Sequence record: LC768462.1
From: Escherichia phage phiEc_1
Direction: 5' to 3' (one strand)
DNA length: 64,000 nucleotides
Part shown: piece after piece, positions 27,239 through 36,817 of the stretch
Layout: every line of letters begins with the position of its first letter
Position numbering within the stretch: the stretch's first letter is position 1
Notes under the pieces: generated by a model
Databases searched by the model: none
What the model was told of the DNA's origin: nothing
What the model saw: only the letters and a program-made list of their open reading frames with translations
Position numbers and translations under genes: made by a program

Positions 27239-28438
27239 ATGTTTCCAGTAACATTAGAAGATACTGAAGGTAATGTTTTAACAGTCAACCCTCCTTGTTA
27301 TGGGTTCCTTCAGCTTCGCAACTATAACGGTGGCGTTGATGAAGACGATGAAGAGTATGATGACTACTTCGACCCTAACATGTATGAGGCAACTCATGGA
27401 TGGAATATGCACGTTCGAGTGTGGCATGAAGAAGCTAACGTTCGTAGTGCTGATGGGGAAGAGTTCCTGTTAAGCCGAGAGATGGATATGTGTAAAATCA
27501 AGCATATCTGGAACTCTGGAACTCATATGAAGATGTTAGGTTTTAGACGTTGGCGTGATGAAAAGCATGTAGCTGAAGCTTTAAGTTGGTGTTCGTATGA
27601 AGATGAAGACACGCCCCCTAAGAACAACATCGAACGTTGGAACGACAAAAACCCTGAGCATCGAACCACACCTCGTGCTGTACTGGAAGCTATGGAAGCA
27701 TTTGTGGACAAAGATCGTCCCTCCTGTTTACGCTGGCACGATAAAGGTTTTATGGGGGTAGCAACTGAGAATATCCCTGCTGATCGTTGTCTGTTCTATT
27801 TGATGTTAGACCGAATCTTCTATTGTGAAGATGAAGAGAGTCAAGTTGAAACCTTCCTCCATAAATGGTTGGTTGAAGGCTGGACAATCCTTCAGGCTTA
27901 TGTTTACTCACGAATGGTTAGCACTTACACTAACCTCTTAGGGGAAACGAAAGCAACTCTGGTTGGTAATGATTGGGATGCTTGTATCTTCCCAGCGTCG
28001 CTGTTTACAGTTGGCATGGCTAATAAATACGCTGAAGCATTTCAAGTGCCTTGGCGTCAACAGTCATATAGAGATGGATGCGGTCATTTCCGTGATGAAG
28101 ACTTTAAGTGGATTCATTACGAGAATGATGAAACAGCAGAATTACGAGTTAACAACTCAATGTTCTTGCCAGTGATGCACCCCGATCTAGTAAAAGACGG
28201 GTCAGAGACACTTAAAGGTGATAATCTTTTGGTTAACTTTACCCGTCGCGTGTCTAAAAATGAGAAAACAGCTAACAGGTTAATCTACGGCATTCGTGCC
28301 GAGGCTAAAGACCTGTTCAACATCTACAACATCATTCAGCGATTTAGTAGTGGAACTCTGGACCAAAGTTCGGAGTATTCAGTGATTCCGTCCTCTGAGT
28401 GGGATGGTATTATGAGCGGATTATTTTTAGGAAAATAA
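27239..28438 (+). CDS. hypothetical protein, first gene of ligase/amidotransferase cluster
   Basis: 399 aa, acidic, no recognisable motif. Confidence 0.6.
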   Translation: MFPVTLEDTEGNVLTVNPPCYGFLQLRNYNGGVDEDDEEYDDYFDPNMYEATHGWNMHVRVWHEEANVRSADGEEFLLSREMDMCKIKHIWNSGTHMKMLGFRRWRDEKHVAEALSWCSYEDEDTPPKNNIERWNDKNPEHRTTPRAVLEAMEAFVDKDRPSCLRWHDKGFMGVATENIPADRCLFYLMLDRIFYCEDEESQVETFLHKWLVEGWTILQAYVYSRMVSTYTNLLGETKATLVGNDWDACIFPASLFTVGMANKYAEAFQVPWRQQSYRDGCGHFRDEDFKWIHYENDETAELRVNNSMFLPVMHPDLVKDGSETLKGDNLLVNFTRRVSKNEKTANRLIYGIRAEAKDLFNIYNIIQRFSSGTLDQSSEYSVIPSSEWDGIMSGLFLGK

Positions 28439-28448
28439 AAGGTTAGTT

Positions 28449-29420
28449 ATGTCAATCTCCACAACGATCGTACCTCTTAATCTTCAACAGGATTTAGGGG
28501 AACAGAAGTTCTTAGGTCGTGGGTGCTTCGGTATCCACAACTACATGCAAGGTCAAGTCGTATATGATGTTAATGACGAATGTGTAATGGAAGATGGGCG
28601 CCATAAACGCTTCAACCGTGACATTAACTTGCAATTGGAGATGTTGAATTACTGGACCCACTCTTTTCATGGTCATGTTCCATCTGATATTGAAAAGAAC
28701 TTGATTGAAACAGCAGACATTATGAATTCTATGTCTTGCTATCGTGATGTATTTACTATCACTTCAGCGAACAGTGTTGCTGTCAATCTTCGTGAGCATC
28801 CAGCAGATCAGATCTTCACAGGACTTATGCTCTTCCGTAGTATTCTGGAAGGGCAATATCGTGGAATGGATTTCCTAGCAGAAGGAATTGAAGACAGGGA
28901 AGAGTGGCTGAAGCGTAAACGCATCGGCATCGCTCTAGTGTTAGCTGGGTTGGGTCGTGACTTCTTCGGTGGGTGGTCTCAACGAGGAAGAGCCAATGGG
29001 AGTAGCGAGAGCACCTCTATTGTTATTAACAACAATATGTCAGCAGCAGCTTTCCTTCCTTTGGTTGTAGACTCTGATGAATATACGAAGCAAGTATGGG
29101 TTCAAAACCCCTTCGGTGTTGGCGACAATGAGAATGGTTATGTTCGTAACCACAACCAAGATGCCTTACGAAGATTTGCTCGTGCTAAAGATCAAGACCC
29201 AGACGAGTATGAAACAATGTCAGAGTGGTTAAGACTCTGGTCCAACTGTTATGGTCACAAACGTGAAGCAATAGACGACAAGTTGGGAAACATTACGGTA
29301 CAAAACTTTACATCCCGACTGATTCAAAGAACTGGAGCAGATTCCGGTCTTACTCTTGAAGAAGTTGGTAACACAATCTCATCTCTCTTTTCTGAACTAG
29401 TGGAGTATTACAATGACTAA
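28449..29420 (+). CDS. hypothetical protein (cluster)
   Basis: 323-aa ORF. Confidence 0.6.
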   Translation: MSISTTIVPLNLQQDLGEQKFLGRGCFGIHNYMQGQVVYDVNDECVMEDGRHKRFNRDINLQLEMLNYWTHSFHGHVPSDIEKNLIETADIMNSMSCYRDVFTITSANSVAVNLREHPADQIFTGLMLFRSILEGQYRGMDFLAEGIEDREEWLKRKRIGIALVLAGLGRDFFGGWSQRGRANGSSESTSIVINNNMSAAAFLPLVVDSDEYTKQVWVQNPFGVGDNENGYVRNHNQDALRRFARAKDQDPDEYETMSEWLRLWSNCYGHKREAIDDKLGNITVQNFTSRLIQRTGADSGLTLEEVGNTISSLFSELVEYYND

Positions 29421-30219
29421 GCGCAAATTCCTCATCGGCTCTGACCCTGAAATGTTCGTTCGTACTAGTAATGGTATCATCACTTCTGTAGCCGGTTTAT
29501 TAGGCTGCTCTAAGGACGATAAGATCGCTCTGGCTAAGGATGTTCGTCTCCAAGAGGACAACGTACTGGCTGAGTTTGATATTGACCCACAGAGCGGTTT
29601 TGAAGCGTTTAACGATAACATGCAACGTGGTATTGATCTCACCAATAATGTCCTGAACAAACTGGACATGGAAACAGCTCCGGGTGTTAGCTCTCACATC
29701 TTCACTGAAGAAGAGATGAAGACCTTTAACGAATCAGCGTTCATCTTCGGGTGCACTCCTGATTTCAACGCCTTCACTGGTCAGAAAAACCCATCCCCGA
29801 CTTCTCAGAATAAGGGACTTCGTACTGCCGGTGGTCACGTACATCTTGGCGTAGTTGGTGCTTTGGATATCACTCTGCAAACTCAGATGATACTGGGTGT
29901 GTTGTGTGACTACTTCCTGTCTCTCCCAGCAGTAATTATGGACAAAGATACTCGCCGTAAAGAACTCTACGGTAAAGCATCTGCAATCCGTTATAAAGAC
30001 TATGGTATTGAATACCGCTCTCTGTCTAACTTCTGGATTAGTGATCGTGAAAACCGTAAGTTTGTTTACGATCAGGTTGACAAGGTTGTTCAGCAGTGTG
30101 ATATGTCCACTCTGATGGCATTGCACTCTCGCCTTCCGATTGAGAAGCTTCATGAAATCATTAACGGGAACAACGTTAAAGAAGCTGACCAGCAGATCAA
30201 ACTCCTTCAGGTAGCATAA
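29413..30219 (+). CDS. putative divergent GS-fold carboxylate-amine ligase
   Basis: IGSDPEMF, GGHVHLG and GIEYRS resemble GxExE / H.H / E.R ligase motifs. Confidence 0.4.
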   Translation: MTKRKFLIGSDPEMFVRTSNGIITSVAGLLGCSKDDKIALAKDVRLQEDNVLAEFDIDPQSGFEAFNDNMQRGIDLTNNVLNKLDMETAPGVSSHIFTEEEMKTFNESAFIFGCTPDFNAFTGQKNPSPTSQNKGLRTAGGHVHLGVVGALDITLQTQMILGVLCDYFLSLPAVIMDKDTRRKELYGKASAIRYKDYGIEYRSLSNFWISDRENRKFVYDQVDKVVQQCDMSTLMALHSRLPIEKLHEIINGNNVKEADQQIKLLQVA

Positions 30220-30228
30220 GAGGTTATC

Positions 30229-35951: not shown

Positions 35952-36133
35952 ATAAGTATAAAGTTCTGTTTAAAGATACTAACGATGCTGGTGATATGCG
36001 AGCTATGGACCTAGATGCTGACATGTTTAACTTCTCTGATGGCAAAGTAGCCTTCTTTCAGGGAAGCGAAGCTGTTGCAGTATTTGAGAGTGCAGCAATC
36101 TGCGGTGTAATCAAAATCTTTATTACAGAGTAA
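35948..36133 (+). CDS. hypothetical protein (cluster)
   Basis: 61-aa ORF. Confidence 0.4.
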   Translation: MNKYKVLFKDTNDAGDMRAMDLDADMFNFSDGKVAFFQGSEAVAVFESAAICGVIKIFITE

Positions 36134-36186
36134 TCTGCTTTAGCCTCTTCGAAAGAGGAGGCTAGTTCGGATAAGCTGGAGGTTTT

Positions 36187-36396
36187 ATGAAACATGAAAG
36201 ATTGAGTAAAGCCATTGACTCTGTATGGGATTCTGGGTGTATTATATACCGAGAGCACGACTCATACGGACAAACCAGAATATTGATTCTTAATTCCTTC
36301 TGTGAGCAGTTGGGGTTAGAAGTATTTGTAACAGGAGCCACTGATCAGCAGTGTGCTTACATTGAAAACATCGTTAAAGACTGGAAAGGTATTTAA
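36187..36396 (+). CDS. hypothetical protein (cluster)
   Basis: 69-aa ORF. Confidence 0.45.
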   Translation: MKHERLSKAIDSVWDSGCIIYREHDSYGQTRILILNSFCEQLGLEVFVTGATDQQCAYIENIVKDWKGI

Positions 36397-36397
36397 A

Positions 36398-36817
36398 ATG
36401 TCAGAAGTAATTTACGTAGCAACTTATGGTTCTCTTCGTCGTGGTCAAGCTAACTATTTAGTTAATGACCGAGCTGGTGCTAAATCTATTGGAGAAGGTT
36501 GGACTGAAGATAACTTCGATCTGTTCCGTTACGGTGGTTCCTACTTCCCGAGCATCTCTCTCGCACACAGCAATAACAATAAGCCTGTTCGTGTAGAAGT
36601 GTTTGCTACTGACAAAGCAGGTCTGGAAGGTCCGTATGACCGTCTGGAAGGTTACAACAAACGTAGCCCTGAAGACAGCTTCTATCAGCGTACTCAGATT
36701 GCTGTTAAGATGGACTCAGGTGAAACTGTTATCGCTTGGATTTATCATATCGACGAAGAACAAGATGTTCTGGTTGAATCTGGTGACTGGTCAGAGTATC
36801 TGAAAAGTGAATCTTGA
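36398..36817 (+). CDS. gamma-glutamyl cyclotransferase-like (GGACT/AIG2 fold)
   Basis: N-terminal VATYGSLRRGQAN motif; ~139 aa. Confidence 0.6.
   Translation: MSEVIYVATYGSLRRGQANYLVNDRAGAKSIGEGWTEDNFDLFRYGGSYFPSISLAHSNNNKPVRVEVFATDKAGLEGPYDRLEGYNKRSPEDSFYQRTQIAVKMDSGETVIAWIYHIDEEQDVLVESGDWSEYLKSES

Follow-up and report, generated by a model that had tools for sequence, protein, structure and literature searches.

What does a phage make with a tightly packed set of genes whose predicted products build and cleave amide bonds, placed directly ahead of its replication genes? The question is raised by a cluster of 13 open reading frames (ORFs), all on the + strand, at positions 27239-36817 of a 64,000-nucleotide stretch of Escherichia phage phiEc_1 (LC768462.1), hereafter the window. 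A megablast comparison of these positions with a phage collection returned 98 matching phage records, nearly all of them Escherichia or Shigella phages, with phage EK5 as the best match (99.9%) and phiEco32, SU10, Bas90 and Bas91 at 95-99%. Because these matches are Kuravirus genomes, the window is, as judged by nucleotide identity, a Kuravirus (Gordonclarkvirinae), that is, a phiEco32-like E. coli podophage, and the cluster corresponds to phiEco32 genes 88-77. A first-pass annotation, made from the letters alone, had described 13 packed, co-directional ORFs encoding amidoligases, a glutamine amidotransferase, an ATP-grasp ligase and a gamma-glutamyl cyclotransferase just 5' of the replisome genes. 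Every ORF was located as described and every motif that it quoted is present in the translations. Neighboring ORFs overlap by 4-8 nucleotides (nt) at gp87/gp86, gp85/gp84 and gp79/gp78, and the sole sizeable gap is one of 79 nt ahead of the amidotransferase gene. The position of the cluster was also confirmed, as the primase/helicase gene gp75 and the genes for a polymerase exonuclease subunit, a nucleotidyltransferase and a dCTP deaminase follow directly.

The cluster is already known: it is the published "peptide-bond / peptidoglycan-modification cassette" (2009/2013) in a known phage. The citing passages of three later papers (PMC5498523, PMC6256558 and PMC10580990) credit a seven-gene module to Iyer et al. 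2009 and Hardies et al. 2013, list a gamma-glutamyl amidoligase, a second amidoligase, an ATP-grasp protein, a gamma-glutamyl cyclotransferase and a glutamine amidotransferase among its products, and give as carriers RIO-1, PSA-HP1, phiEco32, 7-11, PA11, tf, MR299-2, LUZ24, PaP3, CW02 and phiM6. In the passage of Duhaime et al. 2017 (PMC5498523) phiEco32 is named outright as a carrier, and PA11/O4 is likewise counted among the phages with such a cassette. The earlier statement that similar neighborhoods had been predicted computationally, with no established product, agrees with this literature, and we found no experimental test of cassette function in the literature searched. The window shares with the podophage cassette two glutamine synthetase (GS)-fold ligases, an ATP-grasp protein, a class-II amidotransferase and a gamma-glutamyl cyclotransferase, all encoded in the midst of early and replication genes; the Kuravirus version differs by the addition of gp88, gp87, DUF7195, gp81, gp79, gp78 and orf69, and in that its amidotransferase and ATP-grasp protein carry long C-terminal extensions. 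Among the Kuravirus copies (phiEco32 88-77, EK5, SU10, Bas90 and Bas91; 95-99.9% nucleotide identity), gene content and order are as in the window, the ATT start of gp83 is shared and gp79 is identical; the sole difference is orf69, annotated in some records only. What we add, namely a universal protein between the two ligases, the complementarity of two gamma-glutamyl-removing enzymes, a family of accessory proteins and recurrent AUU/AUC start codons, are modest additions and not a discovery.

In order to define the conserved part of the cluster, we compared 86 loci, consisting of the 80 best of at least 577 IMG/VR relatives and six annotated cultured phages, by iterative searches with local hidden Markov models (HMMs). 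The at least 577 IMG/VR stretches with relatives of the COOH-NH2 ligase came from a scan with a seven-lineage alignment; by tblastn this ligase was found in 306 phage records, led by Pseudomonas (121) and Escherichia (93) phages, with further matches in Vibrio, Aeromonas, Proteus, Salmonella, Cronobacter, Klebsiella, Erwinia and Sinorhizobium phages. The COOH-NH2 ligase (C) is present in 86/86 loci, Amidoligase_2 (A) in 85, the N-terminal nucleophile (Ntn) amidotransferase (G) in 84, the gp85-like protein (x) in 82, the ATP-grasp protein (P) in 80 and the gamma-glutamylamine cyclotransferase GGACT (Y) in 46. DUF7195 follows with 23 loci and gp87 with 13, then gp88, gp81 and gp79 with 8 each, gp78 and gp76 with 5 each and orf69 with 3; gp81, gp79, gp78, orf69 and gp76 are confined to Kuravirus-type loci. 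The main gene order, C-x-A-G-(DUF7195)-P-(Y), is collinear in most loci, with synteny extending to LUZ24-like, Zobellviridae, 7-11-like, Vp_R1 and phiM6 loci, and the genes downstream include a DNA polymerase in 52 loci, a primase in 49 and a DnaB-like helicase in 28. Ratios of nonsynonymous to synonymous substitution rates (dN/dS) are 0.08-0.5 for the 12 cluster ORFs with an orthologue in an ECBP2-like relative, about 0.1 for gp86, gp85, gp84, gp83, gp82 and gp79, and 0.26-0.37 for gp88 and gp87. The values near 0.1 indicate strong purifying selection on the core genes. With the cluster also 97-99.9% identical to published Kuravirus genomes, the association is far beyond chance. On these comparative grounds, the conserved functional unit is five to six genes and not thirteen, and the earlier description of a 13-gene unit has to be narrowed; gp88 and gp87 would be lineage-restricted accessories, and the small ORFs other than gp79 unrelated passengers. 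Pfam searches of long variants and of the flanking genes of six distant phages gave no informative fused domain. As a separate observation, the cassette of phiM6 carries an HNH homing-endonuclease gene inside it (L008 7546-7989), and HNH genes lie beside the cassette and replication genes in Klebsiella phage KpnP_VR7901 (L009 12041-12487 and 14139-14621).

Which reactions might these genes encode? Four of the proposed folds, the two GS-fold ligases, the Ntn class-II amidotransferase and GGACT, score above curated Pfam cut-offs. C (gp86; 29413..30219, +), a GS-fold carboxylate-amine ligase of COOH-NH2 ligase type 2, reaches 33.9 bits against PF14395 (gathering threshold 25) and matches PHROG 3815 at E 2e-117. 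Across seven lineages at 28-47% identity its residues E54, G141, H142, H144, E200 and R202 are invariant, corresponding to the Glu of the DPE/QED..E motif, the GGHxH motif and E-x-R. A (gp84; 30843..31946, +; PHROG 7469), the second GS-fold carboxylate-amine ligase, reaches 32 bits against Amidoligase_2 PF12224 (threshold 22), and its translation holds GIELELEG, STHVHMD and SIEFRISE, the expected ExE, HxH and ExR motifs. Its start overlaps the stop of gp85 (ATGA), which couples the two genes translationally. PDB sequence and profile searches with gp88, gp87, gp85, Amidoligase_2 and the COOH-NH2 ligase gave no match.

The protein between the ligases, x (gp85-like, 205 residues; 30229..30846, +), is conserved cassette-wide and, where present, always lies between the two GS-fold enzymes. 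Its motifs are very strongly conserved, with P..G[YF]...R.P.R..[KR][KQ]G shared across lineages and no invariant Lys within this motif, and its dN/dS against the ECBP2-like relative is 0.11. Homologues fall into 64 representative clusters, in all of which x stands alone, with no relatives beyond phage clusters, and neither PDB nor Pfam gave a match; both x and the type-2 ligase family look phage-restricted. The AlphaFold2 (AF2) model of x is poor (pLDDT 56.8) and least confident across the conserved core 84-147; with this model, Foldseek returned weak matches only (E >= 0.1), to small beta-barrel Tudor/chromo/Plus3 domains. The C-terminal residues vary in x (74 unique sequences) and also in DUF7195 (19). 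Such unconserved C-termini argue against either protein serving as a C-terminal tag or carrier of the Pup, ubiquitin or LysW type, and the tagged protein proposed earlier is not supported in its Pup- or LysW-like form.

G (32026..34056, +) is a class-II glutamine amidotransferase of 676 residues, in which the amidotransferase domain occupies the first ~200-225 residues and is followed by a lineage-specific C-terminal part of ~450 residues. The match to GATase_6 (55 bits, cut-off 27) covers the N-terminal ~200 residues only, the catalytic Cys is at position 1, and residues 1-225 alone are conserved across lineages. Aligned to GlmS (1xff), G keeps the equivalents of R73, N98-G99 and D123, thereby retaining the residues that hold the alpha-carboxylate and alpha-amino groups of glutamine and the oxyanion Asn-Gly. 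Against the NCBIfam equivalogs for GlmS, PurF, AsnB and EgtC it scores 20-43 bits with cut-offs of 218-418, and its C-terminal 450 residues have no Pfam match to an acceptor domain (SIS, phosphoribosyltransferase or Asn synthetase). As its scores are far under the equivalog cut-offs and an acceptor domain was not found, the record names "L-glutamine-D-fructose-6-phosphate aminotransferase" and "glutamine-fructose-6-phosphate aminotransferase" are not justified. Within this C-terminal part, residues ~325-676 (33000-34056) contain three zinc-ribbon-type Cys4 motifs (CGGC...C...C, CEIC...CKVC and CSEC...C...C); this segment has no Pfam match and is missing from the LUZ24-like, Zobellviridae and phiM6 homologues.

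The start of G is unusual. The frame opens with TAG AAA ATT TGT, and since neither ATG nor GTG nor TTG occurs in it ahead of the Cys codon, translation must begin at ATT 32026, which directly precedes the catalytic Cys, has a Shine-Dalgarno-like AGGTGG 9 nt ahead and gives the protein length annotated for phiEco32. In a set of 61 non-redundant homologues from cassettes, Cys1 is preceded by ATG in 54, ATT in 5, ATC in 1 and GTG in 1, and every non-ATG start has a Shine-Dalgarno-like sequence upstream (the loci noted for this codon, besides the window at 32020-32031, are L005, L009, L013, L029, L057 and L087). The recurrence of AUU/AUC starts suggests that expression of G may be deliberately low or sensitive to initiation factor IF3. 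The gap ahead of the gene (31947..32025, +) contains an 8-bp hairpin followed by the AGGTGG; its predicted fold of -28.1 kcal/mol is modest (z -2.0). The gap was considered as a terminator or regulatory RNA and set aside, the hairpin being modest and lacking a U-tract.

P (between gp81 and gp79; 34500..35696, +) is nearest to RimK-type alpha-L-glutamate ligases. It aligned to the RimK structure 7qyr over residues 49-253 (phmmer, E 2e-4; 7qys also matched) and matches PHROG 2599 and PHROG 20552; its core 36-260 is conserved in Zobellviridae and phiM6 (E 1e-37 to 1e-40), and an acidic linker and a lineage-specific C-terminal domain complete the protein. Its scores stay below the cut-offs of Pfam RimK (18.3, cut-off 21), NCBIfam rimK_fam (33.5, cut-off 143) and PRK10446 (27, cut-off 331), as do those of the eight NCBIfam ATP-grasp families that match the same C-terminal core. 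The earlier ATP-grasp call therefore holds at the superfamily level only, by the structure alignment, and fails at the RimK family cut-off. As these Pfam and NCBIfam scores are under their cut-offs, the name given in records, "ribosomal protein S6 glutaminyl transferase", is not justified either. Defense-system models (PADLOC) gave no credible match among the cluster proteins, the sole match being P with a type II restriction endonuclease model (E 0.005).

Y (36398..36817, +), the GGACT/AIG2-like cyclotransferase, reaches 63.1 bits against Pfam GGACT (cut-off 22.8), and its YGSLRRGQ and the Glu of RVEVF align with YGTLKRGQ and GEIYEV of mouse/human GGACT; relatives annotate its start at ATG 36398 and not at GTG 36353. 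De novo clustering of the flanks revealed, in 33 loci, a class-I amidotransferase-fold protein 5' of the cassette, which Pfam assigns to Peptidase_C26, the gamma-glutamyl hydrolase family (E about 1e-16). GGACT occurs in 46 loci and C26 in 33, with both in 2 and neither in 9 (Fisher p 6e-13). Two unrelated folds with one bond specificity thus fill one slot, which is the strongest internal clue that removal of a gamma-glutamyl group belongs to the pathway. The gamma-glutamyl/amide theme proposed at first pass holds.

GS-fold ligases convert a carboxylate to an acyl-phosphate, which then reacts with ammonia or an amine, the archetype being the gamma-carboxyl of glutamate (GS, GshA/EgtA, PuuA and PafA). 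Glutamate is the residue added by RimK-type ATP-grasp enzymes; class-II Ntn domains hydrolyze the gamma-amide of glutamine or, as in EgtC, of a gamma-glutamyl amide; and GGACT and C26 enzymes strip L-gamma-glutamyl groups off amines. Precedents for such fold combinations exist in PuuA/PuuD, GshA/GshB, EgtA/EgtC and BtrJ/BtrG. By analogy, our tentative preference, somewhat short of an even chance, is that the cassette may encode a cytoplasmic assembly line, active early, in which gamma-glutamyl-type amides are formed on a small amine or a short peptide and trimmed. C and A would each form an acyl-phosphate from a carboxylate, in this fold typically the glutamate gamma-carboxyl, and link it to an amine, while x would probably be a non-catalytic subunit or scaffold of the flanking ligases. 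G, with its free Cys1 and glutamine-binding residues, could feed glutamine-derived ammonia to one of the ligases or cleave a gamma-glutamyl amide in the manner of EgtC, and the RimK-like P might add a further amino acid, with glutamate as the family default. The gamma-glutamyl group would then be removed, here by GGACT with release of 5-oxoproline and in other lineages by a Peptidase_C26 hydrolase, suggesting that the group may be transient, protecting or activating as with BtrJ/BtrG of butirosin, or that the product is trimmed. A soluble amine (a polyamine or amino acid) or a peptide would be favored as acceptor over DNA.

Several points weigh against this proposal. The reaction steps are drawn from superfamily-level likeness, with P and G far below every curated equivalog cut-off, and PDB sequence and profile searches found no characterized member or solved structure for either ligase family. 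The protein x could be an enzyme or a substrate instead of a scaffold. In addition, both GGACT and C26 are missing from the 7-11-like loci, whose flanks are complete, so that either removal is not universal or the Ntn enzyme or the host carries it out. The split between GGACT and C26 also tracks clades, and the independent events are therefore few. No one in the literature has identified a substrate or product of the cassette. Finally, the Gordonclarkvirinae are strikingly resistant to restriction-modification systems with no known modification pathway (BASEL, PMC11990801), which leaves room for a DNA-linked role.

The same proteins could act on a protein instead of a small molecule, with the ligases adding glutamate or a short peptide to a protein of the host or the phage, for instance by RimK-like glutamylation or through a PafA-like isopeptide bond, and the Ntn and GGACT/C26 enzymes serving as erasers during host takeover. 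P is nearest to RimK and to graspetide maturases, which act on proteins and peptides, and GS-fold ligases include the Pup ligase PafA, while the classical GGACT substrate is epsilon-(gamma-glutamyl)-lysine. The highly conserved segment of x that AF2 could not fold would suit a binding or substrate segment, and the operon lies among early host-takeover genes, beside gp79. Against these points stand the unconserved C-termini of x and DUF7195, the lack of an invariant Lys in the x motif and the absence of any proposed target. From what is known of the family, GGACT needs a glutamyl group with a free alpha-amino group, so that it cannot erase a tag placed on an internal or C-terminal protein Glu. 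We regard protein modification as unlikely.

When would the pathway operate? PSA-HP1 expresses cassette genes "immediately" (PMC7082346), and in SU10 the ATP-grasp protein, the amidotransferase and the YtfP-like protein were detected by proteomics and listed as early products (PMC4281155). In the window, the middle-promoter motif of the gp36 type was absent from the + strand between 20146 and 41877, hence from the cluster and its immediate 5' side, which is consistent with transcription from early promoters. The cassette thus appears to be expressed early, from promoters upstream of the replication genes. Early expression (PMC7082346) would also suit superinfection exclusion, and with it the cell-wall function attributed to Iyer 2009 and Hardies 2013, in which cytoplasmic stem-peptide precursors are altered by the ligases and the amidotransferase, through extra amide linkages or amidation, and the envelope of the infected cell resists superinfecting phages or premature lysis. 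It is the explanation repeated in the citing passages of PMC5498523, PMC6256558 and PMC10580990, the first of which (Duhaime 2017) matches the three ATP-dependent amide ligases with the count of unusual stem-peptide linkages. All named hosts in our tblastn summary are Proteobacteria, also in line with this function. Amidotransferase-dependent amidation of D-isoGlu or meso-diaminopimelate and an ATP-grasp side-chain ligase are known from other bacteria. On the other side, Pfam revealed no Mur-ligase, lipid-II or periplasmic component in the cassette, and the substrates of GGACT and C26 are L-gamma-glutamyl compounds, whereas peptidoglycan has D-isoglutamate. Superinfection-exclusion genes are, moreover, usually sporadic, whereas this operon is collinear across families, under strong purifying selection and tied to the replication module. 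A cell-wall role is in our estimate distinctly unlikely.

The link to replication genes invites another explanation, in which the hydrolases free glutamate, ammonia or amines from gamma-glutamyl pools of the host (glutamine, glutathione, gamma-glutamyl-polyamines and folate tails) and the ligases re-route them to replication precursors, as an auxiliary module with no dedicated end product. The cassette adjoins genes of nucleotide metabolism and replication, and many loci also encode ThyX, ribonucleotide reductase and dCTP deaminase close by. Folate hydrolases and gamma-glutamyl-GABA hydrolases are both found among C26 enzymes, and cofactor tails are glutamylated by RimK-type ligases; authors also routinely annotate cassette genes as auxiliary metabolic genes (PMC10580990). 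What makes this metabolic rewiring very doubtful is that the fixed arrangement of three dedicated ATP-consuming ligases and a universal, non-enzyme-like x resembles a route to one particular product and not catabolism, and that no cassette enzyme reaches a housekeeping equivalog cut-off. In Salmonella phage pSal-SNUABM-01, a ribose-phosphate pyrophosphokinase-like gene and a nicotinate/nicotinamide phosphoribosyltransferase-like gene lie 5-8 kb 5' of the cassette (L006 681-3241), a pair that resembles phage pairs for nicotinamide adenine dinucleotide reconstitution.

Of the eight ORFs described at first pass as having no recognizable domain, two could be assigned, gp82 and gp79. The first gene encodes a gp88-like protein of 399 residues (27239..28438, +), a member of a phage-only family of ~300-400 residues with a "PADR" motif, found 5' of GGACT-type cassettes. 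Its AF2 model is confident (pLDDT 88.6, pTM 0.89), and the predicted fold has no PDB match and is unlike helix-hairpin-helix glycosylases or P-loop kinases; in BFVD it matches uncharacterized proteins of 284-503 residues from cassette phages only, including two GAP52 paralogues. It shares the motif G.x[VT]x5PAD[RQ]x4LxLxR and reciprocal HMM matches with a family (fam4) of ~305 residues encoded 5' of the ligase in 24 loci. The gp87-like protein (323 residues; 28449..29420, +) carries a PADQ motif and has no family or PDB match; its homologues form 17 clusters, with a positional equivalent in pSal-SNUABM-01 (E 0.0013). It may be a paralogue of gp88 and fam4, judging from the motif; a clear paralogy with gp88 was set aside, as only the PAD[RQ] motif is shared and the profile links are weak (E 0.07-0.85). 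Taken together, this "PADR" set (gp88, gp87 and fam4) occurs in 37 loci, of which 30 have GGACT and 0 have C26.

Between G and P lie gp82 (77 residues; 34059..34292, +), which is DUF7195 (PF23825, E 5e-17; dN/dS 0.08) and a frequent small companion of the two flanking enzymes, and the Kuravirus-type gp81 (74 residues; 34273..34497, +; PHROG 13464). The next small gene, between P and Y, encodes gp79 (82 residues; 35703..35951, +), 100% identical to the RNA-polymerase-binding factor gp79 of phiEco32, which displaces sigma70 from RNA polymerase and stabilizes the phage sigma gp36, as seen in cryo-EM structures (PMC12276001). A homologue is absent from phages 7-11 and GAP52 (PMC8948821), and gp79 is a passenger between the P and Y genes, outside the amide chemistry. 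It is followed by the Kuravirus-only gp78 (61 residues; 35948..36133, +), 39% identical to its ECBP2-like orthologue, and by orf69 (69 residues; 36187..36396, +), a variable small ORF annotated in Bas91 and not in the phiEco32 RefSeq, with no orthologue in the ECBP2-like locus L013.

Could the product be placed on DNA? The cassette would then build an amino-acid-derived adduct on a base or a deoxynucleoside triphosphate, explaining the resistance of the Gordonclarkvirinae, for which no mechanism is known (PMC11990801). The BASEL authors proposed that the nucleotidyltransferase and the dCTP deaminase might underlie a DNA modification. In some metagenomic contigs amidoligase and amidotransferase Pfam domains lie beside 5-HMUDK/aGPT-Pplase genes (Lee et al., PMC8989533); furthermore, the cassette usually adjoins primase and polymerase genes, and gp88, gp87 and x, with no assigned activity, leave room for such a function. 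On the other side, a Pfam scan of ten cluster ORFs, which left out the "thymidylate synthase" of the genome, revealed no 5-HMUDK, aGPT-Pplase, DpdA, hydroxymethylase or glycosylase-like domain at E up to 0.1, and the gp88 fold resembles no DNA enzyme. The window also strongly avoids restriction sites: six-mer palindromes are at 0.65 observed/expected (zero-order expectation), PstI has 0 sites against ~16 expected and SacI 0 against ~14, BamHI, KpnI and SphI have 0, CCWGG occurs 6 times, and GATC occurs 145 times against 303 expected (Markov), that is, half; EcoRI (9) and EcoRV (26) sites are kept. Such avoidance is typical of phages with DNA exposed to restriction enzymes. The DNA of the cassette carrier tf is digested by HaeIII, can be joined by T4 ligase and was Sanger-sequenced in its native form. 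In addition, cassette expression precedes replication (PMC7082346), and the operon is shared by phages with very different nucleotide-metabolism genes. We consider hypermodification of DNA or nucleotides improbable; of the four candidates named at first pass (DNA base hypermodification, modified nucleotide, tagged protein and small metabolite) it became the least favored, given the missing handle-installing enzymes, the site avoidance and the HaeIII-cut tf DNA. A variant, in which the cassette together with gp88, gp87 and x attaches an amino-acid-derived gamma-glutamyl/amide adduct to the DNA of the phage, or else to a protein that is bound to DNA or ejected, and so causes the resistance, strikes us as very unlikely; if true, it would be a new class of post-replicative modification needing no 5-hydroxymethyldeoxyuridine or 7-deazaguanine handle.

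Some further features of the surroundings were recorded. The 456-residue "nucleotidyltransferase" (39323-40693), between the polymerase exonuclease subunit and the dCTP deaminase, has no NCBIfam match. About 550 nt 5' of the cluster, a terminator-like hairpin GACTCTTTTCGGAGAGTC with a T-run lies on the + strand (26666-26692), with two small ORFs (26710-26862 and 26865-27227) between it and the cluster, and a tRNA-Arg gene (anticodon TCT; 23023-23098, + strand) is annotated likewise in phiEco32 and Bas91.

How does the proposed gamma-glutamyl assembly line compare with characterized systems? In the E. coli Puu pathway, a GS-fold ligase (PuuA) gamma-glutamylates an amine and a C26 enzyme (PuuD) later removes the group, and the C26-type cassettes pair the same folds. 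The cassette differs in having two ligases, an ATP-grasp protein and an Ntn enzyme and in lacking steps by an oxidase or a dehydrogenase; its ligases fall into Pfam families other than that of PuuA, and the window has GGACT instead of C26. Butirosin biosynthesis combines an ATP-grasp enzyme (BtrJ) with a GGACT/AIG2-fold enzyme (BtrG) that removes a gamma-glutamyl protecting group as 5-oxoproline, a pair that P and Y may resemble; the cassette lacks the acyl-carrier protein, pyridoxal phosphate-dependent decarboxylase and acyltransferase. In glutathione and ergothioneine biosynthesis (EgtA/EgtC), a GS-fold gamma-glutamyl ligase and a second ligase of the ATP-grasp type are found with Ntn or cyclotransferase enzymes that cleave gamma-glutamyl bonds; EgtC is among the weak NCBIfam matches of the cassette, at the scores given above for G, and the cassette has no EgtB/D or GGT-type enzyme. 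Pupylation (PafA, Dop and Pup) likewise has two related GS-fold enzymes encoded with small proteins, and differs in that the cassette has neither a small protein with a conserved C-terminal Gln/Glu nor a proteasome context.

In summary, the cassette is among the most widespread phage modules with no assigned function, found in several families of podoviruses with E. coli, Pseudomonas, Vibrio and marine bacteria as hosts. The present analysis reduces the unit to five or six genes, singles out gp85 as its obligatory partner, marks gamma-glutamyl removal as recurrent and lowers the prior for a DNA modification. As Bas90 and Bas91 plate on E. coli K-12 with restored O16 antigen, the question is directly testable, and the product, if solved, would probably reveal new chemistry in the two uncharacterized ligase families as well as a new strategy of early infection.

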